A stretch of 64,000 nucleotides of DNA from an uncultured Anaerolineales bacterium (GTDB lineage Bacteria; Chloroflexota; Anaerolineae; B4-G1; SLSP01): assembly GCA_964501335.1 (NCBI GenBank), contig CAZCTC010000036.1:8224-72223 (forward strand), read 5' to 3'. The notes below the pieces were generated by a model. That model saw only the letters and a list, made by a program, of their open reading frames with translations, ran no database searches and had not been told where the DNA came from. The translations under genes were made by a program, and so were the position numbers. Below, in pieces: positions 300 to 60,895 of the stretch. Positions within the stretch are counted from its first letter, which is position 1, and each line of letters starts with the position of its first letter.

Positions 300-1130
300 T
301 CTACATAACCTGTCCTGAAAATAGGCGCGCCGTGCCCCCCATGGGCGACCATAAAGGTCGCCCCTACCCGAACACCCCCAATGGAGGGGCGGGGTTACCC
401 CGCCCGGCCCATCCCCAAATCAACCTTCCCCAACGGAAAAGCATCCCCCACCGGGTAATTACCTTCAGAATCAATACATGGATACCTGCATCGGGCGAGA
501 AAACCTCGCCCCTACACAAACGATCTCCCGTAGGGGTACCCCTTGTGGGTACCCAATCTGACAAATCGTCCATTTTCCTCTTTCGGGGTGCCGCCCCCCG
601 CATGGCCTTCTGTCCTGAAAATAGGGCTCTATAGCCTTTTAGCATCCCGCAAATGATCTTTTTCCGGCCAGAAACGACGCGCGGTGCGAAGCAGGGGAAG
701 AGAGTTTTTTTGTTTATGTTTTTGCGCGCATCAGAATGCGCGCAAAAACATAGCCTTTTCCAGAGCCGCCCTGGCGACGCTCTCTTCCCCCTCCTTCCCC
801 CACAGAGCAGTCGTCATGCGGAAACCGGATCCCCGTTCCCGCGTGTTCGTTGGGGGAAGGAGGGGGTCAGGGGGAGGATGAGGGCCAACAGGCAGCGCCC
901 GACAATCTATTTTCCTCTTTCGGGGAGCCACCCCCGGCATGGCCTTCTGTCCTGAAAATAGCCGGAATTTTTAACGCAGAGCCGCAAAGAAGCAGAGACG
1001 CAGAGCCAGAAAAAATAAATCTTCCTCTGCGTCTCTCTGCGATCTCCCCGTCTCTGCGTTGAAATCTCTTTTTCATCCTCCAGAATGCCGCCCCCTATAA
1101 AATTTTTGTAGTAAAATCTGATTCTCTGGC
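300..1130. repeat. Noncoding mosaic of dispersed short repeats
   Basis: Three copies of tttcctctttcggggtgccgcc..ggcatggccttctgtcctgaaaatag (~315, ~575-625, ~905-960). GCCCCTAC..GTAGGGGC hairpins at ~357-394 and ~505-545. Modular element with hairpin 716..751. agagacgcagag..ctctgcgtctct hairpin at ~995-1045. The six-frame ORFs here are repeat artefacts. Confidence 0.8.
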
Positions 1131-1170
1131 GGTATTGGTCAAATGCACGCTTGCTTTAAGGAGGCCGGAA

Positions 1171-1956
1171 ATGTTATCGAACGCCGTCGTTCTGCGCGAC
1201 ATTCCCAAAGAAGAAGCCATCCTCGACCTCTTTCGCTATCCCATTCAAGGCGGATTCCGCGGCTTTTACGCCATCGTCCCCATCATCGGCTGGCACCATG
1301 CCAGCGTCAAAGGAGGCGACCATCACAAGGGCTTCTGGTTCTACCTCCATCCCCAGGAAGCCGTCGTCCGCCGTTATGAATACGGCCAGGGCTTTGTTGA
1401 AGACGAACCCACATCCGTCACACAATACAGCCAGCTTGCCTTAAGCGGAGCCATGGGCCCGGCCCTGGTTGAATATCCGCCTCAACTCTACGCCCACTGG
1501 TTCGGCCTGACCCGCTTTATCCCCGAAGGTCCCCAACTCCCCCAACTTCACGAAGAAGACGGCCCCGGCAGCTCCCGCTTTGCCCGGGCCTGGCAGGGAA
1601 CCCATCAAGGCAACCATGAAGCCTTCCTGGCCGAATTCCAGACCGCCTTCCTGCGCTCACTCGTCAGCCAGAAGAGCGCAGAATTCGACGAAGCTGCCGA
1701 ACTACGCTGGAGGCACCTGCTCCTCTCAACCTACAACGCCGGCGAATACCAGATCCAGGAAGCCGCCCCGCTTTTTGAAAACCTCGTCGACGTCCTTCTG
1801 CGGCAATTCGCCCTGCTGCCCGACCCCTGGTTTGAAAAAGGCAGCTTTGTCGTCGCCCAGATCGGCTATATGATCGAAGACATGGAAGACAGCGGCGTCC
1901 CGGAACTCGCCCCCAAAGCCGCCGAACTGAAACGCTACCTGGATCAACGACGATAG
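1171..1956 (+). CDS. Hypothetical protein (262 aa)
   Basis: ATG at 1171 with GGAGG at 1159-1163. Uninterrupted ORF with no recognisable family. The ORF-track start at 1135 lacks an RBS. Confidence 0.55.
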   Translation: MLSNAVVLRDIPKEEAILDLFRYPIQGGFRGFYAIVPIIGWHHASVKGGDHHKGFWFYLHPQEAVVRRYEYGQGFVEDEPTSVTQYSQLALSGAMGPALVEYPPQLYAHWFGLTRFIPEGPQLPQLHEEDGPGSSRFARAWQGTHQGNHEAFLAEFQTAFLRSLVSQKSAEFDEAAELRWRHLLLSTYNAGEYQIQEAAPLFENLVDVLLRQFALLPDPWFEKGSFVVAQIGYMIEDMEDSGVPELAPKAAELKRYLDQRR

Positions 1957-1961
1957 CAACC

Positions 1962-2500
1962 CATTTTTCACCCGCCCTCTCTCTCTGAAAAAAACATAAT
2001 TTGGCGGGCTCTGAAAAAATCCATATTTTCGGCGGCTTTCTGAAGCCGCCGAAAATATAAATAAAAAAACTCTCCCCCCCTCCCGCGCGTCGCTTCAAAC
2101 CGAACAAAAGCCCTTTGCAGGACGCAAAAACACCCCCGTAAAACCATTTTTCGCCCGCCCTCTCTCTCTGAAAAAACATAATTTGGCGGGCTTTCTGAAG
2201 CCCGCCAAATTATAAAAAAATAACTCTCCCCCCCTCCCGCGCGTCGCTTCAAACCGAACAAATGCCCTCTGCGGGACGCAAAAACACCCCCCGTAAAACC
2301 ATTTTTCGCCCGCCCTCTCTCTCTGAAAAAACATAATTTGGCGGGCTTTCTGAAGCCCGCCAAATTATAAAAAAATAACTCTCCCCCCCTCCCGCGCGTC
2401 GCTTCAAACCGAACAAATGCCCTCTGCGGGACGCAAAAACACCCCCCGTAAAAACCATTTTTCGCCCGCCTTCTGAGGCGGGCGAAAAATGGTATAATCA
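1962..2500. repeat. Tandem array of a 156-bp unit (~3.3 copies; the first copy is 182 bp with an extra hairpin insertion), ending in a terminal hairpin
   Basis: Unit starts (catttttcRcccgccctctctctctgaaaaaacataatttggcgggc..) are at 1962, 2144, 2300 and 2456. Each unit carries a 14-bp-stem hairpin (ataatttggcgggc-tttctgaa-gcccgccaaattat) and the cgcgtcg..catttgcgggacgc module in reverse orientation. Same family as the dispersed copies. Confidence 0.9.
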
Positions 2501-3797: not shown

Positions 3798-5564
3798 ATG
3801 TCCCCGTCCATTCGCTGGCGTATCGCCGTTCCCTATGTGGCCCTGATCATCGCCTTGATGACCGGCTTGATGATTTACCTTTCGATCCTGGTCGGCAACA
3901 CCTATAGCACCAACCTGCGCGACAAACTTCATGCCGAAGCCATCCTGCTCGCCGACGCCTTCAAACCGGAACTCCTGGCCGGGAAGACGGCCGAGGAAAT
4001 CAACCCGCTGGTGCAGGAATACGGCCGTCGTCTTAATGCCCGCGTCACGGTTATCGCCCCTTACGGTGCCGTCCTGGGCGATTCCGAGGTGGATTGGCAA
4101 ACCATGGATAACCACCTCAGCCGCCCTGAAGTCAAAAACGCCCTGGAAAACGGCGAAGGTGAAAACAGCCGTTACAGCAGCACCACGGACGAGCGGATGA
4201 TGTACATTGCCGTAGCCGTCAAAGAAGGGCAAACTCCCCTGGGCATCGTCCGGGCCGGCCTTTCGCTACGCGAAGTCGAGCAGAATACCAATCAGCTCCG
4301 CCGCACCCTCCTCCTTGCCCTGGTCGTGGCCACCCTGCTCAGTATCCTCCTCGCCGTCCTCATCGCCGAACGCACCGCCCGCCCCCTCCGCCGCCTTACC
4401 GAAGTGACCCAACGCATGGCCGACGGCGATATGACCGCCCACATCCTGCCTACCACCCGCGACGAAATCGGGCTGCTCACCCGAACCTTCAACCAGATGG
4501 CCGAACAGCTCCATGAAAAACTCGCTGCGCTCTCCGGCGAACGCGACCGCCTCAGCGCGATCCTCGACCATATGGCCGACGGCGTCCTCATTACCGATAA
4601 GGACGGCCGCGTCCGCATGATCAATCCCGCCGCCGCCGTGATCCTCAACCTGCGCGACATGACGGTCGGCTTCTCTTTCGCCCAAACGGTCCGCGATTAT
4701 CAGCTGATCGAACTCTGGCGCCATTGCCATGAACGCGGCGAAGAACAGATCGCCACGCTGGAAATCAACCTCACCCCCCGCTTCCTGCAAGTCATCATCA
4801 CGCCGCTGCGCACCGCCGACCTGGAAGGCTGCCTCATCATCCTCCAGGATCTCACCCCGATGCGCCGGCTGCAAACGGTGCGCCGCGATTTCGTCAGCAA
4901 TGTCTCTCACGAATTGCGCACGCCGCTGGCCTCGATCAAAGCCCTGGCCGATACCCTCCGCGAAGGCGCCCTGGCCGATCCACCCGCCGCCCGCAACTTC
5001 CTCACCAAGATGGAAACGGAAATCGATGCCATGACTCAACTCGTCGAGGAACTCCTCGAACTGAGCCGCATCGAATCGGGCAAGGCCCCCCTCCAATTCC
5101 AGCCCACCGCCGTCATGGACTTCGTCGCCCCGCCCACGGAACGGCTGCGCCCCCAGGCCGAGCGCGCCGGTATCACGCTCTCGCTGGATCTGCCCGACGA
5201 TCTGCCGCCGGTTCTGGTCGATAAGAGCCGCATCGCTCAGGTGATCACCAACCTGGTTCACAACTCCATCAAATTCACCCCCAAGGGCGGCCAGATCATC
5301 GTCTCCGCCCGCCAAAGCGGCGGCGAAATCATCATCACGGTCCGCGACACCGGCATCGGTATCCCCTCCGAAGCGCTGCCCCGCATCTTCGAACGTTTCT
5401 ACAAAGCCGACCGCGCCCGCTCCGGCGAAGGAACTGGCCTCGGTCTCTCCATCGCCCGCCATATCGTCCAGGCCCACCAGGGCCGCATCTGGGCCGAAAG
5501 CCTGGAAGGCCAGGGCACCACGCTCTTCATCGCCCTCCCGGTCGCTCCTAAAGAAAAAATTTAA
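3798..5564 (+). CDS. Sensor histidine kinase (periplasmic sensor-HAMP-PAS-HisKA-HATPase)
   Basis: RBS GGAGG. N-terminal TM, HAMP, PAS, H-box SHELRTPL, and N/G1/G2 boxes. Cognate of the upstream regulator. Confidence 0.9.
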   Translation: MSPSIRWRIAVPYVALIIALMTGLMIYLSILVGNTYSTNLRDKLHAEAILLADAFKPELLAGKTAEEINPLVQEYGRRLNARVTVIAPYGAVLGDSEVDWQTMDNHLSRPEVKNALENGEGENSRYSSTTDERMMYIAVAVKEGQTPLGIVRAGLSLREVEQNTNQLRRTLLLALVVATLLSILLAVLIAERTARPLRRLTEVTQRMADGDMTAHILPTTRDEIGLLTRTFNQMAEQLHEKLAALSGERDRLSAILDHMADGVLITDKDGRVRMINPAAAVILNLRDMTVGFSFAQTVRDYQLIELWRHCHERGEEQIATLEINLTPRFLQVIITPLRTADLEGCLIILQDLTPMRRLQTVRRDFVSNVSHELRTPLASIKALADTLREGALADPPAARNFLTKMETEIDAMTQLVEELLELSRIESGKAPLQFQPTAVMDFVAPPTERLRPQAERAGITLSLDLPDDLPPVLVDKSRIAQVITNLVHNSIKFTPKGGQIIVSARQSGGEIIITVRDTGIGIPSEALPRIFERFYKADRARSGEGTGLGLSIARHIVQAHQGRIWAESLEGQGTTLFIALPVAPKEKI

Positions 5565-5584
5565 AGCAGTACCGCAAAAGGCCT

Positions 5585-5710
5585 TTATTTGTTAAAAAGC
5601 GACGCGCTGGATGGGAAGAGAGAATTATTTTTTATTCATTTTTCGGCGGCTTCAGAAAGCCGCCGAAAAATGGCCTGTTCTTTCCCGTGTTTTCCGGGCT
5701 AACCGCACAG
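5585..5710 (+). repeat. Modular intergenic repeat element (forward orientation) with a 14-bp hairpin
   Basis: gacgcgctggatgggaagagag, then a T-rich stretch, then catttttcggcggc-ttcagaaa-gccgccgaaaaatg (5634..5669), then gcctgttctttcc, then ccgcacag. Confidence 0.85.
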
Positions 5711-6871: not shown

Positions 6872-7099
6872 AACCCAAGTTGCTACCTCGATAAATCCAG
6901 CCCATGATTCAAGATCCGCTGCATGCCGTCTAAAAGTAGACAGCAGCAAGTAGACAGTAGACAGCAAAAATCTTCGCCTTACCGGCTCAAATGGACTGGA
7001 AATCCGCTGTCTACTGTCTACCGTCTACTTTCTACTAAACCTTTGCATACAAAAAAGCTTAAATAGAAAGCACGTCTTTTAAAGGTAGCAACTTGGGTT
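6872..7099. mobile_element. MITE-like non-autonomous element with perfect 17-bp terminal inverted repeats
   Basis: aacccaagttgctacct at 6872..6888 is the exact reverse complement of 7083..7099. The interior holds inverted TGTCTAC-array modules (6935..6965 and 7006..7037) and no ORF. It sits 2 bp after the WD40 stop. Confidence 0.6.
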
Positions 7100-7106
7100 G
7101 CTTAAC

Positions 7107-7227
7107 CTTTTTAACGTCCTGCATAGGTCGTTTTTCCCGTAAGAAACGTCGCGCGTGATGGAAGAAGAGAATTTTTTGTTCATGTTTTCGCGTGCCGCAG
7201 ACGGCACGCGAAAACATGGACCTTTTC
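7107..7227 (+). repeat. Modular intergenic repeat element (forward) with a covarying hairpin
   Basis: ttaacgtcctgcatagg..aaacgtcgcgcgtgatggaagaagag..catgttttcgcgtgccg-caga-cggcacgcgaaaacatg (7190..7227), then gaccttttcttg. Confidence 0.85.
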
Positions 7228-7230
7228 TTG

Positions 7231-7285
7231 CTGTCTACTGTCTACTTGCTACTGTCTACTTCTTCTTGCTACTGTCTACTTCTTC
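7231..7285 (+). repeat. TGTCTAC heptad direct-repeat array
   Basis: ctgtctactgtctacttgctactgtctacttcttcttgctactgtctacttc. Related arrays at 12411..12442, 39359..39390, 6935..6965 (reverse) and 7006..7037. Confidence 0.85.
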
Positions 7286-12410: not shown

Positions 12411-12442
12411 TGTCTACTGTCTACTTGCTACTGTCTACTTCT
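12411..12442 (+). repeat. TGTCTAC heptad direct-repeat array, 18 bp upstream of phoU
   Basis: cctgtctactgtctacttgctactgtctacttc. Confidence 0.85.
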
Positions 12443-13122: not shown

Positions 13123-13400
13123 GAAAAATTTCCTCGCGGGCGGCCACATCGGGCCGCCCCTACAAACACGCCACCCATGTAGGGGCGCCCCGGCGTGGGC
13201 GCCCTCCTCTCCCCCCATCCAGCGCATCGCATCAAGCCGAACAAAACCTCCTGCGGGACGCCAATTAAAGTACCGGTTGCGGGACGCTAAAAAAGCTAAC
13301 CGCACAGCTGGCAAACCCTCGTTCCACCATTGCAAAAGCAGCATATCTAAGTAAAATTGAGTTGATTTACCAGCCGTAGTTCCGATAAAAAGCAAATCAA

Positions 13401-37972: not shown

Positions 37973-38039
37973 TTCCTCTCCACTCAGATTAAAAAATTTA
38001 TATTTTCGCGCGCCCCCTCAAGGCACACGAAAATATAAA

Positions 38040-39074
38040 TCAATAAGAAAAAAGCAGTTGCAAAGTCTCCCCGGGCGCTTCATCCAGCAATCGATAAGCC
38101 TCCGCCGCCTGCGTGATCGGAAAACGATGGGAAATCAAAAAAGCCGGCCTTAACCGCGCCAGCAGCGTCCACGCCACCTCCCAACGGCGCGCCCGGCTCC
38201 AACGTCCGGTCAGCTCCGGCGCCAGCGTACTCACCTGACTGGTAAGCAACCGGATACGGCTGCGATGAAAAGCTCCCCCCAGATCCACAGCTGCCCGCCG
38301 CCCCCCATACCACGACCCCAGCACCACCCGCCCGGCAAAACCGGTCACAGCGAGGGCCTGATCCAGGGCCGCCGGCATCCCCGATAACTCATAGGTCAGA
38401 TCCGCATCGGCCGCACTTCCCGCCCCCTGCAAAGCCACCCGCACCGCCGCCTCGACCTCCGGCAACGTGGGATCAAAGGCCGCCTGAGCCCCCAGGGCCA
38501 GAGCCGCTTCCCGCCGACGAGAATAACGATCCAGCACCACCAGACTGGAAAAAGGCTGCCACGCCAACAAAGCCGTCGTCAACAAACCGACAATCCCCTG
38601 CCCAAAGACAGCAATCTGCTCGCCGGTCAGCGGCGCCCCATCCAGAAGCAAAGTAAGCGCCGTCTCCATGTTGGCCAGAAAAGTCGCCTCTTCCAGCGGC
38701 ACATCCTCCGGTACCGGCAGCAACGATGCCACCCCGGTCACAAAAAGGCCGGCATGCGGATGATAAACAAAGACAGACTGCCCTAACCAAACCGGATCGA
38801 CCTGCGCCCCAATCTCCACAACCTGCCCCACCAAAGCATAACCGTAAGCCAGAGGATAGGCCAGGGTTCCAGCCAGCGCAGAAATTTGAGTGTCGGCGGC
38901 CATCAAGGTGGGAGCCTCCCCACGGTAAATCAACATCTCAGTCCCCGCACTGATTGCAGAACAGACCGTTTTCACCACGACCTGCCCGATACCGGGCGGC
39001 GGCACCGATACCTCTCGCACCTCTACCTGCCGCGGCCCCGTGAAATACAAATCCAAAGACTTCCCGTTTCCCAT
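38040..39074 (-). CDS. MDR-superfamily zinc-type alcohol/polyol dehydrogenase-like oxidoreductase
   Basis: RBS AGGGGAG. Rossmann GxGxxG (VFGQGIVG). GroES-like N-terminal domain. Confidence 0.7.
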   Translation of the reverse strand: MGNGKSLDLYFTGPRQVEVREVSVPPPGIGQVVVKTVCSAISAGTEMLIYRGEAPTLMAADTQISALAGTLAYPLAYGYALVGQVVEIGAQVDPVWLGQSVFVYHPHAGLFVTGVASLLPVPEDVPLEEATFLANMETALTLLLDGAPLTGEQIAVFGQGIVGLLTTALLAWQPFSSLVVLDRYSRRREAALALGAQAAFDPTLPEVEAAVRVALQGAGSAADADLTYELSGMPAALDQALAVTGFAGRVVLGSWYGGRRAAVDLGGAFHRSRIRLLTSQVSTLAPELTGRWSRARRWEVAWTLLARLRPAFLISHRFPITQAAEAYRLLDEAPGETLQLLFSY

Positions 39075-39124: not shown

Positions 39125-39300
39125 TGGCCCCGGCCTTGCCGCGTCCCGCAAATGGCCCTTTCCCCGTAAAAAACGACGCGCTGGATCGGAAGAGAGAGTT
39201 TTTTTGTTTATGTTTTCGGCGGCTTCGGAAAGCCGCCGAAAACATAGGCCTTTTCCTGAATCGCGTCGCTGCTTAACAACAAAACTAGGGAGAGGGGCAG
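39125..39300 (+). repeat. Complete modular intergenic repeat element (forward)
   Basis: gcgtcccgcaaatg, then aaacgacgcgctggatcggaagagagag, then T-rich, then atgttttcggcggc-ttcggaaa-gccgccgaaaacat (39210..39245), then aggccttttcc, then a tail. A tgtcctgaaaatag module precedes it and a TGTCTAC array follows at 39359..39390. Confidence 0.85.
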
Positions 39301-39400
39301 GGGTGAGGGCTAAACGCCAAAACATGTCCCTTTTCCAGAGCCGCCCCGGCGACACGGGCTGTCTACTGTCTACTTGCCGCTGTCTACTTCCGCTGAATTT

Positions 39401-40018
39401 TCATCCTTCAGGGTGCCGCTCCACCTTGATCCAGTGATGCATCCGTTCCACCTTCGTTTTCAAGTACACCAGATTCTCCGGCGTGACCATACAATCCAAC
39501 GGCACCCGCTCGACAATCTCAATACCCAAGGCCTGCAAATCCTCCATCTTGCCCGGATTGTTGGTCAATAACCGGATCGAAGACACCCCCAGATCCCGCA
39601 AAATGCACGCCGCCACCGTATAATCCCGACCATCCGCGGGATGCCCCAACACCAGATTGGCATCCACCGTGTCATACCCCTGGTCCTGCAAATTATAAGC
39701 ACGCAACTTCTCCGCCAGCCCGATCCCCCGGCCCTCCTGCCGCAGGTAAATCAAAATGCCCAGCCCCGCCGCAGCAATCAGCTGTAACGAACGATGCAGT
39801 TGCTCTCCACAATCACACCGGCGCGATCCCAACACATCCCCGGTAAAACATTCAGAATGCACTCGCACCAGAACACCACTTCTTCCAGCGACCTCGCCCA
39901 GGATCATCGCCAGATGCTCTTTCAAATCTCCAGCAGAAGAATAAAGGCACAATCTAAAAACACTGTTTTCAACAGGCAATCGAGCGCAAACCCGACAAGC
40001 AACCATCGATTCTTCCAT
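39401..40018 (-). CDS. ribA: GTP cyclohydrolase II
   Basis: RBS GGAGGG. Zinc-binding Cys in HSECFTGD..RCDCG. RQEGRGIGL, LTNNP. Near-collinear with E. coli RibA. Confidence 0.85.
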   Translation of the reverse strand: MEESMVACRVCARLPVENSVFRLCLYSSAGDLKEHLAMILGEVAGRSGVLVRVHSECFTGDVLGSRRCDCGEQLHRSLQLIAAAGLGILIYLRQEGRGIGLAEKLRAYNLQDQGYDTVDANLVLGHPADGRDYTVAACILRDLGVSSIRLLTNNPGKMEDLQALGIEIVERVPLDCMVTPENLVYLKTKVERMHHWIKVERHPEG

Positions 40019-41149: not shown

Positions 41150-41572
41150 GTGGTCAGCGATCATTTTGAAGAATATCTCGGGGCTATCTTTCGGTTGCGC
41201 CATGATACCGACACAGCCCTCCCACTTTCACAGTTGCAACTCTATTTTGGCTACTCACCGATCTCCATCCATGAAATGGTCCAAAAGCTCACCACTCAAG
41301 GGTTGGTGACCTATCAGCCCTACCGCGGCGTCACCCTGACCCCCGACGGGGAACGCATCGGCATGGATCTGGTCCGGCGCCACCGCCTTTGGGAACGGTT
41401 CCTGACCGACCTGTTGGACTTCCCCGCCGACAGCGTTCACGAAATCGCCGGCCAGCTGGAACATGCCGCCCCCCAGGAAGTGACGGAACGGCTCGCCCGG
41501 CTCCTGGGCAACCCGGAAAACTGCCCCCACGGTGATCCCATCCCCCCCCGCCGGGAGGAACTATCACAATAA
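41150..41572 (+). CDS. DtxR/MntR-family metal-dependent transcriptional repressor
   Basis: GTG after AGGAGG. N-terminal helix-turn-helix, dimerisation and metal-site pattern (..HEIAGQLEH.., C-terminal NCPHGDPIP). Confidence 0.75.
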   Translation: MVSDHFEEYLGAIFRLRHDTDTALPLSQLQLYFGYSPISIHEMVQKLTTQGLVTYQPYRGVTLTPDGERIGMDLVRRHRLWERFLTDLLDFPADSVHEIAGQLEHAAPQEVTERLARLLGNPENCPHGDPIPPRREELSQ

Positions 41573-41586
41573 AAAATTCTCAACCT

Positions 41587-41990
41587 GTGCGGGTAACCTG
41601 GAAAACGAGTGAAAAAAATTCTCTTCCAGCCCGCGCAGCGCTTCTTACCAGGAAGACACCTTCAGCGGGACGCAAAAATACCGCCCGCATGAATAAAACA
41701 GTTGGTGCGAAAAATGGGAGAAAAAAAGCCCGCGAAAACATAAATAAAAATTTCTCTCTATCCAGCGCGGCGCTTCTTACCGGGCAAAAGCCATTTGCGG
41801 GACGCTAAAATGCCGCCCACAGGGATAAAACAATGGATGCTAAAAAACGAGAAACAAAGAGCCCGCGAAAACATAAATAAAAATTTCTCTCTCTATCCAG
41901 CGCGGCGCTTCTTACCGGGCAAAAGCCATTTGCGGGACGCTAAAACGATCCCCATTCACATAGAAATAAAGCGGTTTAACCGGAGGTAAT
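41587..41990. repeat. Tandem array (~2.5 copies of 132-139 bp) of the modular element in reverse orientation, filling the feoAB upstream region
   Basis: Units begin tccagcgcggcgcttcttaccgggcaaaagccatttgcgggacgctaaaa.. at about 41624, 41763 and 41895. Confidence 0.85.
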
Positions 41991-44224: not shown

Positions 44225-44380
44225 TAGTATTTTAACGTCCCGCAAAAAGCTTTAGTTCGGCTCGAAGCGACACGCTGAATGGGTAGAAAGAGATTTTTTA
44301 ATCATTTTTTCGGCGGCTTCAGAAAACCGCCGAAAAAATGGGCTTTTCTTTCAAAAAACACCCTGGGTGACGCAACAACA
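44225..44380 (+). repeat. Modular intergenic repeat element (forward) between feoB and the feoC-like gene
   Basis: ttttaacgtcccgcaaaaag..gcgacacgctgaatgggtagaaagag, then cattttttcggcggc-ttcagaaaa-ccgccgaaaaaatg (44303..44340), then ggcttttctttc. Confidence 0.85.
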
Positions 44381-44648: not shown

Positions 44649-44667
44649 ACACCCCCTCAAAAAATAA

Positions 44668-44702
44668 TTTATCGCGCGCCGTCTCCGGCGCGCGATAAAT
44701 TA
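44668..44702. terminator. 16-bp-stem hairpin after the feoC-like gene
   Basis: aatttatcgcgcgccg-tctc-cggcgcgcgataaatt. Confidence 0.5.
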
Positions 44703-45920: not shown

Positions 45921-48900
45921 TTAACCTTTCCGCATGACAGCCGGCAGATAGACTCGATAGGTGCGGAAGGTCGCCGTGACCGCCTTCGGCCCATCCATCG
46001 TCACCGTCACGACCGGCACCGCCGCCGTGACCGCCCCGCTCCAGCCGCCGAAGGAAACGGTCCTGGTCGTCGTCGCGCTCAACGTCACCACCGTCCCCGC
46101 CGTAAAGGTCGCCTGACAGGTGCCGCTGGAACAGTTCACGCCGGCCGGCAGACTGGTCACCAGCCCCGTCCCCTCGCCCGTCAGCGTCACCGTCAGCGTA
46201 TAGAGGTTCATCGCAAACGCAGCCGTGATCGTATGGTTCGCCATAACGTTGGTAAAGGTGTAGGCGTTCACCGCCCCCACCGTACTGCCGTCCACCCGCA
46301 CATCCACGATGTGATAACCGGTGCTGGGGCTGATCGTAAAGACCGCACTGCCGCCGTGATTCACCGTCTGCGGCGTGCTGGGACTGATCGAACCGTTCGC
46401 CCCGGCCGTCGGCGTGATCGTATAAATGTTGATCGCAAACGCAGCCGTGATCGTATGGTTCGCCGTGACGTTGGTAAAGGTGTAGGCGCTCACCGCCCCC
46501 ACCGTACTGCCGTCCACCCGCACATCCACGATGTGATAACCGGTGCTGGGGCTGATCGTAAAGACCGCACTGCCGCCGTGATTCACCGTCTGCGGCGTGC
46601 TGGGACTGATCGAGCCGTTCGTCCCGGCCGTCGGCATGATGGTATAAGTGTTGATCGCAAACGCAGCCGTAATGGTGTGGTTCGCCGTGACGTTAGTGAA
46701 AGTATAGGCGCTCACCGCCCCGACCGTGCTGCCGTCCACCCGCACATCCACAATGTGATAACCGGTACTCGGACTGATCGTAAAGACCGCACTGCCGCCG
46801 TGATTCACCGTCTGCGGCGTGCTGGGACTGATCGAACCGTTCGCCCCGGCCGTCGGCGTGATCGTATAAATGTTGATCGCAAACGCAGCCGTGATCGTAT
46901 GGTTCGCCGTGACGTTGGTAAAGGTGTAGGCGCTCACCGCCCCCACCGTGCTGCCGTCCACCCACACATCCACAATGTGATAACCCGTGCTCGGGCTGAT
47001 CGTGAAGGAAATCGTGCTGCCGTAATTCACCACCGTCGGCACGGCCGGACTGAGCGAACCGTTCGCCCCGGCCGTCGGCGTGATGGTGTAGGTGTTGATC
47101 GCAAACGAGGCCGTGACGGCTTTAGCTGTCGTCATTGTGAACACCTGGGGATTGCCGGTACCGCTCAAATCGCCGCTCCACCCGCTAAAGGTCGAACTGA
47201 TCAGCGGTGTCGCAGTCAGGGTGACCACAGTACCGGGCAAGAAACCATAAGTACAGGTGATTCCACAATTGATCCCGGCCGGATTGCTGGTCACATTGCC
47301 GATTCCCATACCGCTGAAATTAAGATTCAACAGCAGATAGGGTGATTCGTACGCTCCCGCATCGACGCTGTCACCGACAATCCGGACATTGCCGTCCAGA
47401 TCAGTCATCATGGTAACGCTGAGACTGTTTCCGGCATCGATCGCCGGCGAAACCATCTGCAAACGATAATCGCCGGTCGTGGTAGGAGCCGCCGTGGCAA
47501 TAATCGGCGTGGCGAACTTCGGATCGCTATACCGCATCCCGGTACCGCAGGTCGTTCCGGAAGGACAGCTTCCCTGAAGCACCGAAGAACTCAGCGCAGC
47601 CGTACCATTGTTGTTGTAAATTTCCGCCCCCGTCGTGGCGCTGTCGCCCCAAAAGATCGTGTTAACCGCAGTGGCCACACTGCCGGACCCATAATTATGA
47701 ATCGCGCCGCCCTGGCCGGCCCGGTTGCCGGCAAAGGTGACATTGAGCAAGCGCGGCGTCACGCTGCCGGAATAGCCGTTGTTGTAAATTCCACCGCCGC
47801 TGGAGCTGCCGTAGTTACCGCTGAAGAGTACGTTGATCAACACCGGGCTGCTGCTCCCCTGATAGCCATAGTTGTCCAGCCCGCCGCCATAAGCCGCCTG
47901 ATTGCCGCGGAAGATCACATGGGTCAATATCGGGCTGCTGACCCCGTTTCCGCCGTCGTTATACATCCCACCGCCGCTGCTGGCGCTCTGATTGCCGCTG
48001 AAGATCACATGGGTCAACTGCGGACTGCTGGTGCCGGAGCTGCCGTTGTTGTAAAGGCCGCCGCCGTAGGAAGCAGCCCGGTTTCCACTGATCGTCAGAT
48101 TGGCAAGGGTCGGACTGCACGCTTTGCCGCTGCCGTTGCCGGCGCAGTAGATCCCCCCGCCCGAATCGTTCGGAGCCGTGCCGGCCGCATTGCCTCCGGT
48201 AACGGTAAAGCCGTCGATCACCGTGGTCCCGGTAATCAGGCCGTTCGTCACCCCGTCCAGATAAAACACATGATAGGCATTGTTGGTCGCCAGCCCGTTT
48301 TTATCGATATCCCCGCTGAGGATGGTCGGATGCGCCGTCCAGTTGCGCTCGGAACGCTGCGTCTCGGTGGCGGCAAAACCGCCGTAAAGTTGCACATTGT
48401 TCCGATTGATCCGGAAAGTCTCCGTCAAGGCATTGTTCACATGCCCCGCGCCCTCATCGGGATAATAAGTTCCCTCAGCCACCCAGATCTCATAAGTCGA
48501 AGAGACATGCGCATGGGTCCAGGCCAGCGCCTCCTGCACATTGGTATAAGCGGTGCTCCAGGAAAGGCCGTCGGGAGTGCCGGTCGCATCCCTGTCGACA
48601 TAGAAAACATGGGCTTCGTAGGCTCCCCGATCCACCAGCGGAGCCGTGCCGTTGCCGGTATCGGCAGCCGGCATATCGACTTTGCGGGCCCAGCCATCCC
48701 GATCTGTCCCCGCCGGCACAACGTTATTGTCACCGGAATCGATCGCAGGCGACGTTAAACGCAAACGATAATTGCCGCTTGTTGTAGGAGCCGCCGTGGC
48801 GGTAATCGGCATAATAAATAAGGGATCGGTATAAAGCATCCCAGATCCACAACTCGCCAGGTCCGGACAGCCTCCCTCAATCGTACTGTAACTGATCACC

Positions 48901-50513
48901 GGGTAAGTGGCATTAAAATTGTAAGTGTAAATCTGCGCCCCCGCCCCCCCGGCCGTATTCCCCCACAAAATACTGTTTTGCAATGCCGGCTGGCTACCCC
49001 AATAACCATTGCCGTAAAGCACCATAGCGCCGCCATTTACCGCGGCCCGATTTCCACTGAACGTCAGATTGGTCAACACCGGATAGGCAGCAGTCCAGGC
49101 AGCATAGGCAAGAATTCCCAATCCCCCACCCTCGTTGGCCTGATTTCCACTGAAAACCACGTTGTTCAATACCGGATTACCATCTCCGGTACCCACCAGA
49201 AGGGCTCCCCCCCCAGTCCCTCCGGCCATATTGTTGAGAAAGGTTACATTATCCATCCGGAGATAACTGATAGATCGAACCGCATTATTGATCAGCCCAC
49301 CGCCCCCCTCAGTAGATCGGTTGCCGGTAAAAACAACATCCTTCAAATAGGGGCTCAAGACAGCTCCGTCCGTTATCCCGTAATCAGTAGCGAGGCCACC
49401 TCCATTAGTAGCCTGATTGCCGCTGAAAACTACATGAGAAATCGTAGGGCCACAGACCGGACCAGCAGAATAGCAATAAAGGCCCCCACCCCGATCCTGC
49501 CAATATCCCCCATCTGCCTGTCCCCCTGTCAGCGTAAAGCCGTCGATGACCGTAGTCGGACCAATACTGGATGAATACGCCCTTAGAGAAAAAATGTTAT
49601 AGGCATTGCCGCCCACAATATCGTTCCAGGTTTCATTAATGAAATTGCCGTCTGTGTTAATGTCATTTCTCTCGACATCCCCACTAAGAATCGTCGGATG
49701 GGCCACCCAATCACGTTGGTCCAACCGGGTCTCGTTCCCGGCAAACCCGCCGTAAAGCAAAAAACCATCCACATCCTCAATCCTGAAAGTGGCATTCCGG
49801 CCATCCCCTTCTGGATAGTAGACCCCCTCCGCCACCCAGATCTCCTCATCGGTCCCGGTATGATAAGCTATAGCCGTCGTCAGAGAAGTATAGGCATTCT
49901 GCCAGGAAAGCCCGGTTCCGGTGCCGGTCGCATCTTTATCGACATAATAGATCGGCCGGATCGCATACTCGAAGTAAGCGCCGTCCGATTCGGTCCAGGA
50001 AGTCTCATACTGACTGGCGTTGCGATCGGCGACCGTGCCGGAAACGCGGCCAGAACTGGTCGCCAATGTGCCGTTGCTGATATAGAAAATGTATTTGACC
50101 GTGGTACCGTAAGGCTGCGGCGGCACGCTCGCCACCCAGATCCGGTTGGGATCGCTGTATCTGGAGAAAGTAGCCGTCACCGCCGTCCCGTTGGTCTTGG
50201 TAGGATTGCTGCCGTCCGTTGTATAGACCAGATAGACTGTTTTGCCGGTCGTATCGAAAGCAAAATTGACATAGAGATCGGCCGTATCGTCGAAATGGAT
50301 CATCGAGCTGGAAAAATCAAGGCGCCCGGAGGCCTGCCGGTAATTAGGGGCTACCGTATAGGGGTGAAGATGCGTGCCGTCGGTATAACCGATCGACTCG
50401 CCGGGGAAGTGTCCCGTCCCGCTCCAGGCTCCCACGACGGGAACCAGGACCAATAAGAAGGCCAGCATGGCCATCCAGACACTGAACTTAAGGCTGCCGC
50501 GTATCAGCTTCAT
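45921..50513 (-). CDS. Giant secreted beta-helix (pectin-lyase-fold/Pmp-like) adhesin-like protein with C-terminal tandem domain repeats
   Basis: ATG at 50513 after AAAGGA. Signal peptide. Repeated GG(G/A)(L/I)(Y/H)N..G/...SGN(Q/R)A parallel beta-helix units. C-terminus has four near-identical 74-aa domains plus two diverged flanking copies (InlB B-repeat-like). Confidence 0.8.
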   Translation of the reverse strand: MKLIRGSLKFSVWMAMLAFLLVLVPVVGAWSGTGHFPGESIGYTDGTHLHPYTVAPNYRQASGRLDFSSSMIHFDDTADLYVNFAFDTTGKTVYLVYTTDGSNPTKTNGTAVTATFSRYSDPNRIWVASVPPQPYGTTVKYIFYISNGTLATSSGRVSGTVADRNASQYETSWTESDGAYFEYAIRPIYYVDKDATGTGTGLSWQNAYTSLTTAIAYHTGTDEEIWVAEGVYYPEGDGRNATFRIEDVDGFLLYGGFAGNETRLDQRDWVAHPTILSGDVERNDINTDGNFINETWNDIVGGNAYNIFSLRAYSSSIGPTTVIDGFTLTGGQADGGYWQDRGGGLYCYSAGPVCGPTISHVVFSGNQATNGGGLATDYGITDGAVLSPYLKDVVFTGNRSTEGGGGLINNAVRSISYLRMDNVTFLNNMAGGTGGGALLVGTGDGNPVLNNVVFSGNQANEGGGLGILAYAAWTAAYPVLTNLTFSGNRAAVNGGAMVLYGNGYWGSQPALQNSILWGNTAGGAGAQIYTYNFNATYPVISYSTIEGGCPDLASCGSGMLYTDPLFIMPITATAAPTTSGNYRLRLTSPAIDSGDNNVVPAGTDRDGWARKVDMPAADTGNGTAPLVDRGAYEAHVFYVDRDATGTPDGLSWSTAYTNVQEALAWTHAHVSSTYEIWVAEGTYYPDEGAGHVNNALTETFRINRNNVQLYGGFAATETQRSERNWTAHPTILSGDIDKNGLATNNAYHVFYLDGVTNGLITGTTVIDGFTVTGGNAAGTAPNDSGGGIYCAGNGSGKACSPTLANLTISGNRAASYGGGLYNNGSSGTSSPQLTHVIFSGNQSASSGGGMYNDGGNGVSSPILTHVIFRGNQAAYGGGLDNYGYQGSSSPVLINVLFSGNYGSSSGGGIYNNGYSGSVTPRLLNVTFAGNRAGQGGAIHNYGSGSVATAVNTIFWGDSATTGAEIYNNNGTAALSSSVLQGSCPSGTTCGTGMRYSDPKFATPIIATAAPTTTGDYRLQMVSPAIDAGNSLSVTMMTDLDGNVRIVGDSVDAGAYESPYLLLNLNFSGMGIGNVTSNPAGINCGITCTYGFLPGTVVTLTATPLISSTFSGWSGDLSGTGNPQVFTMTTAKAVTASFAINTYTITPTAGANGSLSPAVPTVVNYGSTISFTISPSTGYHIVDVWVDGSTVGAVSAYTFTNVTANHTITAAFAINIYTITPTAGANGSISPSTPQTVNHGGSAVFTISPSTGYHIVDVRVDGSTVGAVSAYTFTNVTANHTITAAFAINTYTIMPTAGTNGSISPSTPQTVNHGGSAVFTISPSTGYHIVDVRVDGSTVGAVSAYTFTNVTANHTITAAFAINIYTITPTAGANGSISPSTPQTVNHGGSAVFTISPSTGYHIVDVRVDGSTVGAVNAYTFTNVMANHTITAAFAMNLYTLTVTLTGEGTGLVTSLPAGVNCSSGTCQATFTAGTVVTLSATTTRTVSFGGWSGAVTAAVPVVTVTMDGPKAVTATFRTYRVYLPAVMRKG
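46215..47105. repeat. Four near-identical 222-bp in-frame tandem repeats inside the adhesin gene
   Basis: ggtaaaggtgtaggcg recurs at 46251 and 46473, and further units follow with the same period. More than 95% nucleotide identity between units. Confidence 0.9.
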
Positions 50514-50599
50514 CACAGTTCCTTTCTATGAACGAATATGATGCATCTCCCAACACTCAAATTATAAGCACAAAGTGTGACAGAAGTGTTAATCATCAG

Positions 50600-50640
50600 T
50601 TCAGGTTTTCGCGCGCCTCAGAAGGCGCGCGAAAACCTGA
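50600..50640. repeat. Hairpin-family member (18-bp stem) followed by CCTTTTCTTC
   Basis: ttcaggttttcgcgcgcc-tcagaa-ggcgcgcgaaaacctgaa. Confidence 0.8.
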
Positions 50641-50667
50641 ACCTTTTCTTCTATCCTGACCACAAAA

Positions 50668-50705
50668 ATAAAAAAAGCGCGCACTCATGGAGTGCGCGCT
50701 TTTTT
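50668..50705 (-). terminator. Intrinsic terminator of groEL (bidirectional A-run/stem/T-run)
   Basis: aaaaaaagcgcgcactc-atgg-agtgcgcgcttttttcat, 17-50 nt downstream of the groEL stop. Confidence 0.8.
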
Positions 50706-52840: not shown

Positions 52841-52889
52841 AAGTCCCGAGAATATTTTTCGCGCGCCAAAGGCGCGCGAAAAATATAAA

Positions 52890-54824: not shown

Positions 54825-54990
54825 AGGCATTGTAGCGTCCCGCAAATGATCCCTTCCCGGCCCGATGCGACGCGCTGGATGGGAAGAAGAGTTTTTTGGT
54901 GGTGTTTTTGCGCGCATAAGAATGCGCGCAAAAACACAAGCTTTTTTCTCTGCGCCCTCGGCGCCTTTGCGGTGAAATCTGAGTGAATTA
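54825..54990 (+). repeat. Modular intergenic repeat element (forward) with a GCGCGC-core hairpin
   Basis: gtagcgtcccgcaaatgatccc..gcgacgcgctggatgggaagaagag, then gtgtttttgcgcgc-ataagaat-gcgcgcaaaaacac (54902..54937), then aagcttttttctc, then gcgccctcggcgcc. Confidence 0.85.
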
Positions 54991-57904: not shown

Positions 57905-58050
57905 GTATTTTCATATTTTCGCGCGCCGCCTGCGTAGCAGGTCAGATAAACAGAGAAAAGTTATTTTTATTCATTTTGTCGGCAGCATCAGAAAGCCGCC
58001 GACAAAATGAGCTTTTCTTTCTCTTGTTTTTCGGACTAGCCGTACAGGTG
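57905..58050 (+). repeat. Hairpin-family copies in the aspS/58124 divergent region
   Basis: catattttcgcgcgccgcctgcgtagcagg.. and cattttgtcggc-agcatcagaaa-gccgacaaaatg (57972..58009), then agcttttctttctc. Confidence 0.75.
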
Positions 58051-60825: not shown

Positions 60826-60865
60826 AGGGATCTCTTATCCACGCCCCATCTCTAACAAACAAAAA

Positions 60866-60895
60866 TCGGGCCGCACGCCGGCCCGATTTTGTTGT
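60866..60895. terminator. Bidirectional terminator hairpin between convergent genes
   Basis: caaaaatcgggccg-cacgc-cggcccgattttgttg. Confidence 0.6.

Follow-up and report, generated by a model that had tools for sequence, protein, structure and literature searches.

Among short repeats of bacterial genomes, the BOX elements of Streptococcus pneumoniae are modular intergenic repeats of the form boxA-boxB(n)-boxC, and MITEs are defined by terminal inverted repeats together with target-site duplications. In the REP superfamilies, a GTAG or CGTC tetranucleotide stands unpaired beside the stem, at one of its ends (PMC3733652). The repeat family analysed here is real and uncatalogued, and its core unit of ~130 nt runs from a module A to a module B that includes a purine run, continues through a T-run and a long palindrome, and closes with a pyrimidine module of ~12 nt.

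The window, the whole stretch of 64,000 nucleotides that was analysed, is part of a bacterial chromosome and encodes groES/groEL, miaA, aspS, feoAB, ribA, phoU, and many PAS histidine kinases, with a GC content of ~56% and an AspS whose nearest relatives carry the Anaerolineae label. Contigs of the JGI metagenome 3300022666 are 99.96-100% identical to it, and two further contigs of that sample, L067 (18 kb) and L069 (21 kb), added 39 kb; in total, ~108 kb of DNA of this genome was examined. The GC skew of the window is ~-0.2, constant across positions 1-64000 and held where genes sit on either strand, with a positive AT skew, and it is ~-0.18 to -0.24 in L067 and L069 in the orientation read, such that a strong constant skew is common to all three contigs of the population.

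Direct-repeat analysis, motif searches with shuffles, an nhmmer profile built from six seed copies, and a covariance model (R1) all returned the same set of elements. The window holds six full copies on the plus strand, two tandem arrays on the minus strand, two partial copies, and seven naked hairpins, and L067 and L069 contribute 14 further full copies. Over the ~108 kb this amounts to 29 units (26 complete), several partials, and about a dozen naked hairpins, at a density of about one copy per 4 kb (~0.3 per kb), with all units intergenic; the copy number extrapolates to the order of a thousand per genome. The elements of the window are the following.

633-769, plus strand: full copy with a TGCGAAGCA mini-hairpin insert in module B (R1 126.8 bits; alignments A1 and A4; nhmmer 632-764)
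2005-2494, minus strand: tandem array of three units with a 155-bp period (2005-2134, 2160-2288, 2315-2443) and a terminal hairpin at 2450-2494
5558-5689, plus strand: full copy that begins at the stop codon of a histidine kinase and is followed by tail 2, TTTTCCGGGCTAACCGCACAGGT (R1 113.2 bits; nhmmer 5561-5686)
7105-7235, plus strand: full copy whose core is the variant CGCGTGCCG/CGGCACGCG, with heptads after it at 7232-7280 (R1 128.1 bits; nhmmer 7104-7230)
13204-13270, minus strand: partial copy made up of modules A and B alone, with tail 2 alongside in inverted orientation (R1 32.7 bits; nhmmer 13206-13264)
31238-31274, unstranded: naked hairpin with one G-T mismatch, amid convergent genes
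36394-36517, unstranded: two naked hairpins, 36394-36438 and 36480-36517, amid convergent genes
37995-38041, minus strand: imperfect hairpin of the family class at the 3′ end of an ADH gene
39132-39263, plus strand: reference full copy covering 132 model positions, the best R1 match (140.6 bits; nhmmer 39132-39260, E=1e-38)
41563-41949, minus strand: tandem array of three units with truncated hairpins in the gap from a dtxR-like gene to feoAB (R1 48-69 bits)
44226-44357, plus strand: full copy 17 nt past the feoB stop codon (R1 130.2 bits; nhmmer 44226-44353)
44665-44702, unstranded: naked, perfect 17-bp hairpin of the family class
50599-50642, plus strand: naked hairpin with a CTTTTCTTC tail, a perfect 20-bp stem, and the loop CAGA
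52852-52886, unstranded: naked, perfect 16-bp hairpin in the miaA / groES gap
54826-54955, plus strand: full copy antisense to both of its minus-strand neighbours in the gene map (R1 120.4 bits; nhmmer 54825-54951)
57912-58026, plus strand: partial copy with T-run, hairpin (one A-C mismatch), post-hairpin module, and tail 2, in the divergent region between aspS and an M23-peptidase gene (R1 53.7 bits; nhmmer 57952-58022)

A first-pass annotation of this DNA had proposed a modular family at seven composite loci, and the concordant census of nhmmer and R1 bears this out, as it does the existence of every naked hairpin that had been placed near 31243, 36395, 36480, 38010, 44668, 50600, and 52852. 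The partial copy reported at ~13240-13320 also exists, but it lies at 13204-13270 on the minus strand, contrary to the uniform plus orientation claimed at the time, and that census was incomplete in that the minus-strand arrays at 2005-2494 and 41563-41949 belong to the family as well. The alternative that the palindromes arise by chance in GC-rich sequence, with base composition creating the impression of a family, draws on the general GC-richness of the hairpin cores and on nothing further. Dinucleotide-preserving shuffles give 0.00 expected matches both to the 23-mer of module B and to the composite pattern of A, B, T-run, and hairpin, against four and eight observed, respectively; full-length copies score 80-140 bits against R1, and their modules stand in a fixed mutual register. 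Together with the covariation described below, these results exclude chance, and the random palindromes that the first-pass annotation had itself named as a possible undoing of its claim did not materialize.

Short-read contigs (JGI, Logan) terminate inside copies at 2340/2424, 5622, and 57992, as expected of high-copy repeats; the family thus limits MAG contiguity and explains why short-read assemblies of this population break at certain intergenic sites. A further short-read assembly end, at 46565, falls inside the internal repeats of a large protein gene (45921-50516, minus strand), which encodes 1531 aa and contains internal tandem DNA repeats of 222 nt (four copies, with 79-93% identity to the reference one) and of about 90 nt. 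Its product resembles repeat proteins of the beta-helix or adhesin type.

The order of parts within a unit, as read from alignments A1, A4, and A6, begins with a T-rich left edge (GGCCTTnTARCG) and module A (GCGTCCCGCAAATG), followed by ~19 variable nt and by module B (GCGACGCGCTGGATGGGAAGAGAG, with the form GCGACGCGC...GGGAAGAGAG), which keeps a fixed 28-nt register to module A in every aligned copy. An invariant T-run, the hairpin, and then GGCCTTTTC / GGCCTTTTCYYY complete the unit. In and near the reference copy these parts are placed as follows.

39141-39154, plus strand: module A, an exact match to the motif
39174-39198, plus strand: module B as CGACGCGCTGGATCGGAAGAGAG, with the purine run at its end (motif search, alignment A4)
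39199-39208, plus strand: T-run ahead of the hairpin, with the invariant TTTTT of A4
39209-39246, plus strand: perfect 17-bp hairpin with loop CGGA, 20 bp (39206-39249) when T-G pairs are included
39250-39259, plus strand: post-hairpin pyrimidine module (CTTTTCC...), conserved in A4 and A6
39327-39425, plus strand: linker module consisting of the 3′ half of a hairpin arm, CCAGAGCCGCCCCGGCGAC, CTGTCTA heptads, and CCGCTGAATTTTCATCCTTC... (alignment A7, with the L067 and L069 copies)

Several extra modules combine variably with this core, before or after it, namely the U module, tail 1 with its heptads, tail 2, and the mini-hairpin insert, which is found in module B of two copies. Tail 1 consists of CCAGAGCCGCCCCGGCGAC and three to four CTGTCTA heptads and continues into the U module (...TTTTCATCCTTCGGGGTGCCGCCCCGGCATGGCCTTCTGTCCTGAAAATAGG...GGCATGGCCCC), which in other copies precedes module A and which joins the units of the 255-bp and ~347-bp arrays. 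The sequences ccgcacag and ccagagccgcc, previously noted as tails, are indeed present, but they are conserved modules common to several copies and not mere tails, which makes the family a mosaic. Copies are either single or arranged in head-to-tail arrays with periods of 133, 155, 255, and ~347 bp. The unit has no terminal inverted repeats, its left edge (GGCCTTGTAACG) and right edge (GGCCTTTTCC) being direct and not inverted. A GGCCTTTT-like direct repeat recurs at both edges, and as it is nearly alike in all copies it may belong to the element itself or mark a preferred target; a clear target-site duplication is not seen. No conserved promoter-like element was found in the unit, and a sigma-54-like TGGCAT-N-GC in module U was set aside as weak and missing from many copies.

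Two features of the extra modules touch neighbouring genes. The conserved linker/U module (39389-39425) takes in the final ~7 codons of ribA (39401-40018, minus strand) together with its stop codon, and the repeat may have supplied the end of this gene. The CTGTCTA heptads, counted as TGTCTACT, occur 14 times against 0.4 expected, at 6935-6963 (minus strand), 7008-7015, 7232-7280, 12411-12439, and 39360-39388 in the window, at L067:9493-9530, and at L069:10068-10100. One set stops 17 nt ahead of the phoU start codon, others lie within the tail 1 linker, and the heptads could be a regulator-binding array or merely another repeat module.

The hairpin spans 16-20 bp (mostly perfect over 16-21 bp) and closes on a loop that is usually CAGA, kept in 19 of 23 copies. 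Of the 20 stems in the window that are perfect over 10 bp or more, 16 are of the family class, with lengths of 14-21 bp. Pairing across 22 distinct full copies reaches 95.4% of cells, with double changes in 11 of the 19 pairs (61 cells); none of 500 shuffles reaches as high, and a slid partner pairs in only 33-51%. The core variants that had been named as changing in a compensatory manner are all present and covary. This strong covariation is one point in favour of a rival reading at the RNA level, in which the units would be mRNA 3′-end stabilisers, RNase III sites, weak terminators, or small RNAs under selection for RNA structure. However, the 16 inner pairs are nearly all Watson-Crick, with 2 G-U and 2 unpaired among roughly 350 cells, and since most stems are also perfect, covariation alone is no argument for RNA; a near-pure Watson-Crick core in mostly perfect stems points to complementarity at the DNA level. 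Correction of quasi-palindromes templated by the hairpin is a known mutational process, and through it "compensatory" changes are possible without selection. The selection on structure that was first read from the hairpins thus holds as a structural constraint with which the covariation agrees, but the RNA level does not follow from it, and templated correction could also account for the changes.

One copy (L069:19609-19740, minus strand) has its loop inverted to TCTG, with all flanking modules in their usual orientation. This suggests a palindrome-mediated loop inversion, and a flipped loop between unflipped flanks is the behaviour expected of a DNA palindrome. These traits are, by inference, more in keeping with a DNA palindrome than with a selected RNA helix.

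Two further helices were considered and rejected. Pairing of modules A and B (GCGTC/GACGC) is without covariation and leaves 25% of cells unpaired. Between the purine run of module B and the pyrimidines after the hairpin, 85.6% of cells can pair, which would favour an RNA structure, but the pairs are mostly G-U and the changes one-sided in runs of low complexity, and the purine/pyrimidine helix is explained by composition.

The outer arm is T-rich on its 5′ side and A-rich on its 3′ side in every copy, and this polarity is the same when read from the opposite strand. A T-tract 5′ and an A-tract 3′ on either strand make the shape of a canonical intrinsic terminator impossible, and canonical A-stem-T terminators are found separately in the window, at 50671-50705 after groEL and at 60862-60890. 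In favour of an RNA-level function, U-G pairs at its base extend the stem to 20 bp with CUUUUCC directly after it, so that a simple scan scores it as terminator-like, and the naked hairpins at 36480-36517 (glycosyltransferase gene) and 37995-38041 (ADH gene) lie in sense just past stop codons with a U-rich tail. Gene context does not follow this pattern: at the ten composite loci, based on JGI gene calls, the element is sense to both neighbours at three, antisense to both at five, in a divergent region at one, and beside an uncalled left neighbour at one, and just three of the ten are sense-downstream of a gene. This mixed orientation argues that the elements are neither cis-regulatory leaders nor simple terminators, and the terminator reading is rejected on hairpin polarity and gene context together, in agreement with the first-pass annotation, which did not take the copies for simple terminators. 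The five antisense loci, the non-canonical terminator shape, the helix of modules A and B without covariation, and the lack of a promoter-like element in the unit and of a match in Rfam make RNA-level units in general an unlikely explanation. Where a copy is transcribed, its 16-20 bp stem is expected to form in mRNA too and may influence processing or stability, which would be a by-product and not what the family exists for.

A different use by the host would be as DNA sites. E. coli BIMEs bind gyrase or IHF, and the family could by comparison serve as nucleoid-organising or replication-related sites with an orientation that follows the direction of replication. The sequence conservation of the loop and of several flanking modules, the very high density, and the strictly intergenic placement agree with such a function, as does the shared orientation of the six full single copies of the window on a strand of constant skew. 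The claim that all single copies are in plus orientation is accurate for these six and for one partial copy of the window, but four single full copies in L067 and L069 run opposite; the 14 full copies of these contigs divide into 10 in the window's sense and 4 opposite, relative to GC skew. With more of the genome included and arrays counted once, orientation against the sign of GC skew is 13:6 loci (binomial p = 0.17), and uniform orientation is not upheld for the family at large. With a freely varying GC core, recognition of the palindrome as a duplex sequence is unlikely, and close relatives are without the family, which is unexpected for a core chromosomal function. Host-used sites are accordingly a very improbable account of the family as a whole.

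The comparison with related genomes, proposed along with the first claims, reveals a difference in presence and absence. Relatives were compared over the loci around aspS (L057-L060, 57 kb, AspS 79-82% identical), and no full copy was found in them. Their orthologous aspS/M23 intergenic region is without the element and about 110 nt shorter (the extra DNA of the window, at least about 110 nt, includes the partial copy), with a conserved promoter-like TTGCTT...TGTGGTATAGT, and the flanks are too diverged for the insertion boundary to be fixed. In L057, the closest relative found (82% AspS identity), a lone naked hairpin of the T-5′/GC-core/A-3′ class lies just past the aspS stop codon (L057:11780-11816), and the bare hairpin may therefore predate the composite element. 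Another related Anaerolineae genome has a short repeat of its own, GGGGCGACGC-aat-GCGTCGCCCC, which is found three times in 240 nt (L060:16154-16391) and has no relation to the family.

Rfam gave no match to the window at the gathering threshold, and E-value scans returned sub-threshold generic hairpin matches only. No plasmid or phage matches to the family were found, the specific family pattern had no match on viral contigs, and its 11 loci on metagenome contigs are all due to chance. The pattern of modules A and B was found at at least 44 loci on genome contigs; among the matches listed, 43 are chance occurrences in high-GC genomes and only L008 is real. L008 was considered as a second species carrying the family, but it is identical to part of a contig of JGI sample 3300022666, and sharing across species is therefore not supported. 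Beyond the contigs that match the window, the sample has one that is identical to a contig from the NCBI MAG 'uncultured Anaerolineaceae bacterium binchicken_co20_77'. The translated repeat frames, concatenated and searched against the protein database, matched one entry, P0241, and no other organism; this is a spurious ORF through a tandem array on L069, from the same sample. A search of the literature found no catalogued repeat of this kind in Anaerolineae/Chloroflexi. The first-pass annotation had left room for an already catalogued REP/BIME class; the family has no Rfam entry and departs from the GTAG/CGTC definition of REP (PMC3733652).

Among the Pfam matches in the ~108 kb, there is no transposase, RAYT, or other mobilising gene. 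A retron-type reverse transcriptase is encoded at 26646-27530 (plus strand; Pfam RVT_1 E=5e-13; best PADLOC model RT_II-A, E=1.7e-63), directly downstream of an SPFH/Band-7 protein (25903-26634). In the non-coding DNA upstream lie a TATAAT-like box and, with a T-run after it, a perfect 14-bp hairpin (25677-25707), and the region 25563-27530 could represent a retron that has an unusual SPFH partner and an msr/msd RNA. Nothing supports a link between this reverse transcriptase and the repeat family. Elsewhere in the window, an ORF at 1135-1956 (plus strand) has weak Pfam matches to the N- and C-terminal domains of the eukaryotic spliceosome factor AAR2 (E about 2e-6), which is odd for a bacterium.

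Taken together, the modular family, its architecture and covariation, the intergenic placement without a fixed orientation to genes, the absence from close relatives, and one differential site form the direct basis for the best explanation, proposed with moderate confidence: a lineage-specific, REP/BIME- or MITE-like DNA repeat, selfish or neutral, in which the complementarity of the arms is kept at the DNA level. A strong hairpin ~12 nt inside the right boundary, in an element with neither terminal inverted repeats nor a clear target-site duplication, recalls elements mobilised by HUH enzymes (PMC3733652, PMC6006769). Such a repeat would spread through insertion or recombination events for which the hairpin, in single-stranded DNA, serves as the substrate of a trans-acting enzyme presumably encoded outside the examined DNA, for example of the HUH/Y1 type as for REP-RAYT or IS200/IS605, and the perfection of the arms may be due to selection for the hairpin, to hairpin-templated correction, or to both. 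Several points weigh against this DNA-repeat reading: the evidence for mobility is a single orthologous site with diverged flanks, the ~108 kb contain no mobilising gene, and the element has neither terminal inverted repeats nor a clear target-site duplication. The conserved CAGA loop and the several modules could equally reflect a host function.

A bolder and distinctly unlikely proposal is that the perfect T-5′/A-3′ hairpin with its CAGA loop represents a third, untagged REP-like superfamily, apart from GTAG and CGTC, mobilised or domesticated by a putative ssDNA-hairpin enzyme in Anaerolineae. Its modules would then form a programmable intergenic "kit", for instance for RNase III processing or the control of read-through, and a dedicated enzyme, if found, would widen the known range of REP-like systems. 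For present use, the family serves the annotation and assembly of Anaerolineae genomes. R1 can mask or annotate roughly 5% of the examined DNA, and since close relatives are without the family, it is usable as a strain or lineage marker. It also contributes a case from Chloroflexota to the interspersed palindromic repeats, one with no GTAG/CGTC tag, an unusually long perfect hairpin, and fixed polarity.

In comparison with known systems, the likeness to BOX lies in a length of ~100-200 nt, sub-modules in fixed order with variable content, the lack of clear terminal inverted repeats, and the potential for stable secondary structure. We know of no sequence relation between the two, nor of a single long perfect palindrome with a conserved loop in BOX, and the further modules of the family (U, tails, and heptads) are, unlike those of BOX, shuffled around the core. 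With Correia/NEMIS, ERIC, and other MITEs, the family shares short non-coding intergenic repeats, differences in presence and absence among relatives, and long hairpins if co-transcribed, but instead of terminal inverted repeats it has the direct GGCCTTTT-like repeat at the unit edges. Like intrinsic terminators, the units have a GC-rich intergenic stem-loop that in some copies is followed by a short U-rich stretch, but the U-tract stands 5′ and the A-tract 3′ of the GC core in both directions and the placement relative to genes is inconsistent.

Closest in general character are REP and BIME, which are likewise high-copy, strictly extragenic palindromic units (about 36-44 bp here), lineage-specific, often at the 3′ ends of genes, and variable in stem sequence with complementarity kept; as in BIMEs, the palindromic units are mixed with other short conserved motifs as a mosaic. 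Unlike REP (PMC3733652), the family has no stem-adjacent GTAG/CTAC or CGTC/GACG, the flanks being ...TTTTTGTT / stem / GGCCTTTTC, and the CGTC of module A sits about 65 nt from the stem. Its stems are 16-21 bp long and mostly perfect, whereas those of the CGTC families have 8-9 bp and others are imperfect, and its arm polarity is fixed, T-rich 5′ and A-rich 3′. REPINs and BIMEs typically form inverted HH/TT dimers, and BIME units alternate, but the units of the family are single or head-to-tail, the latter throughout its arrays, and in contrast to REP-RAYT systems no RAYT occurs in the ~108 kb. The IS200/IS605-derived PATEs and HUH elements (PMC6006769) resemble the family in a strong hairpin ~12 nt inside the right boundary, in having neither terminal inverted repeats nor obvious duplication, and, for the IS200/IS605-derived elements (PMC6006769), in the conservation of hairpin structure and not of sequence. 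The family differs from IS200/IS605 in that it has no convincing left-end hairpin, the A-B pairing being without covariation, and in that there is no TnpA or TnpB gene in the ~108 kb and no omega-RNA-like Rfam match; its orientation of 13:6 loci (p = 0.17) does not establish the strong replication-direction bias of IS200/IS605-type elements. The missing REP tag and inverted dimers, the missing alternation of BIMEs, and the missing inverted repeats of MITEs place it outside every named family, and on present evidence it is not a new kind of element but belongs to the general kind of interspersed mosaic palindromic repeats.
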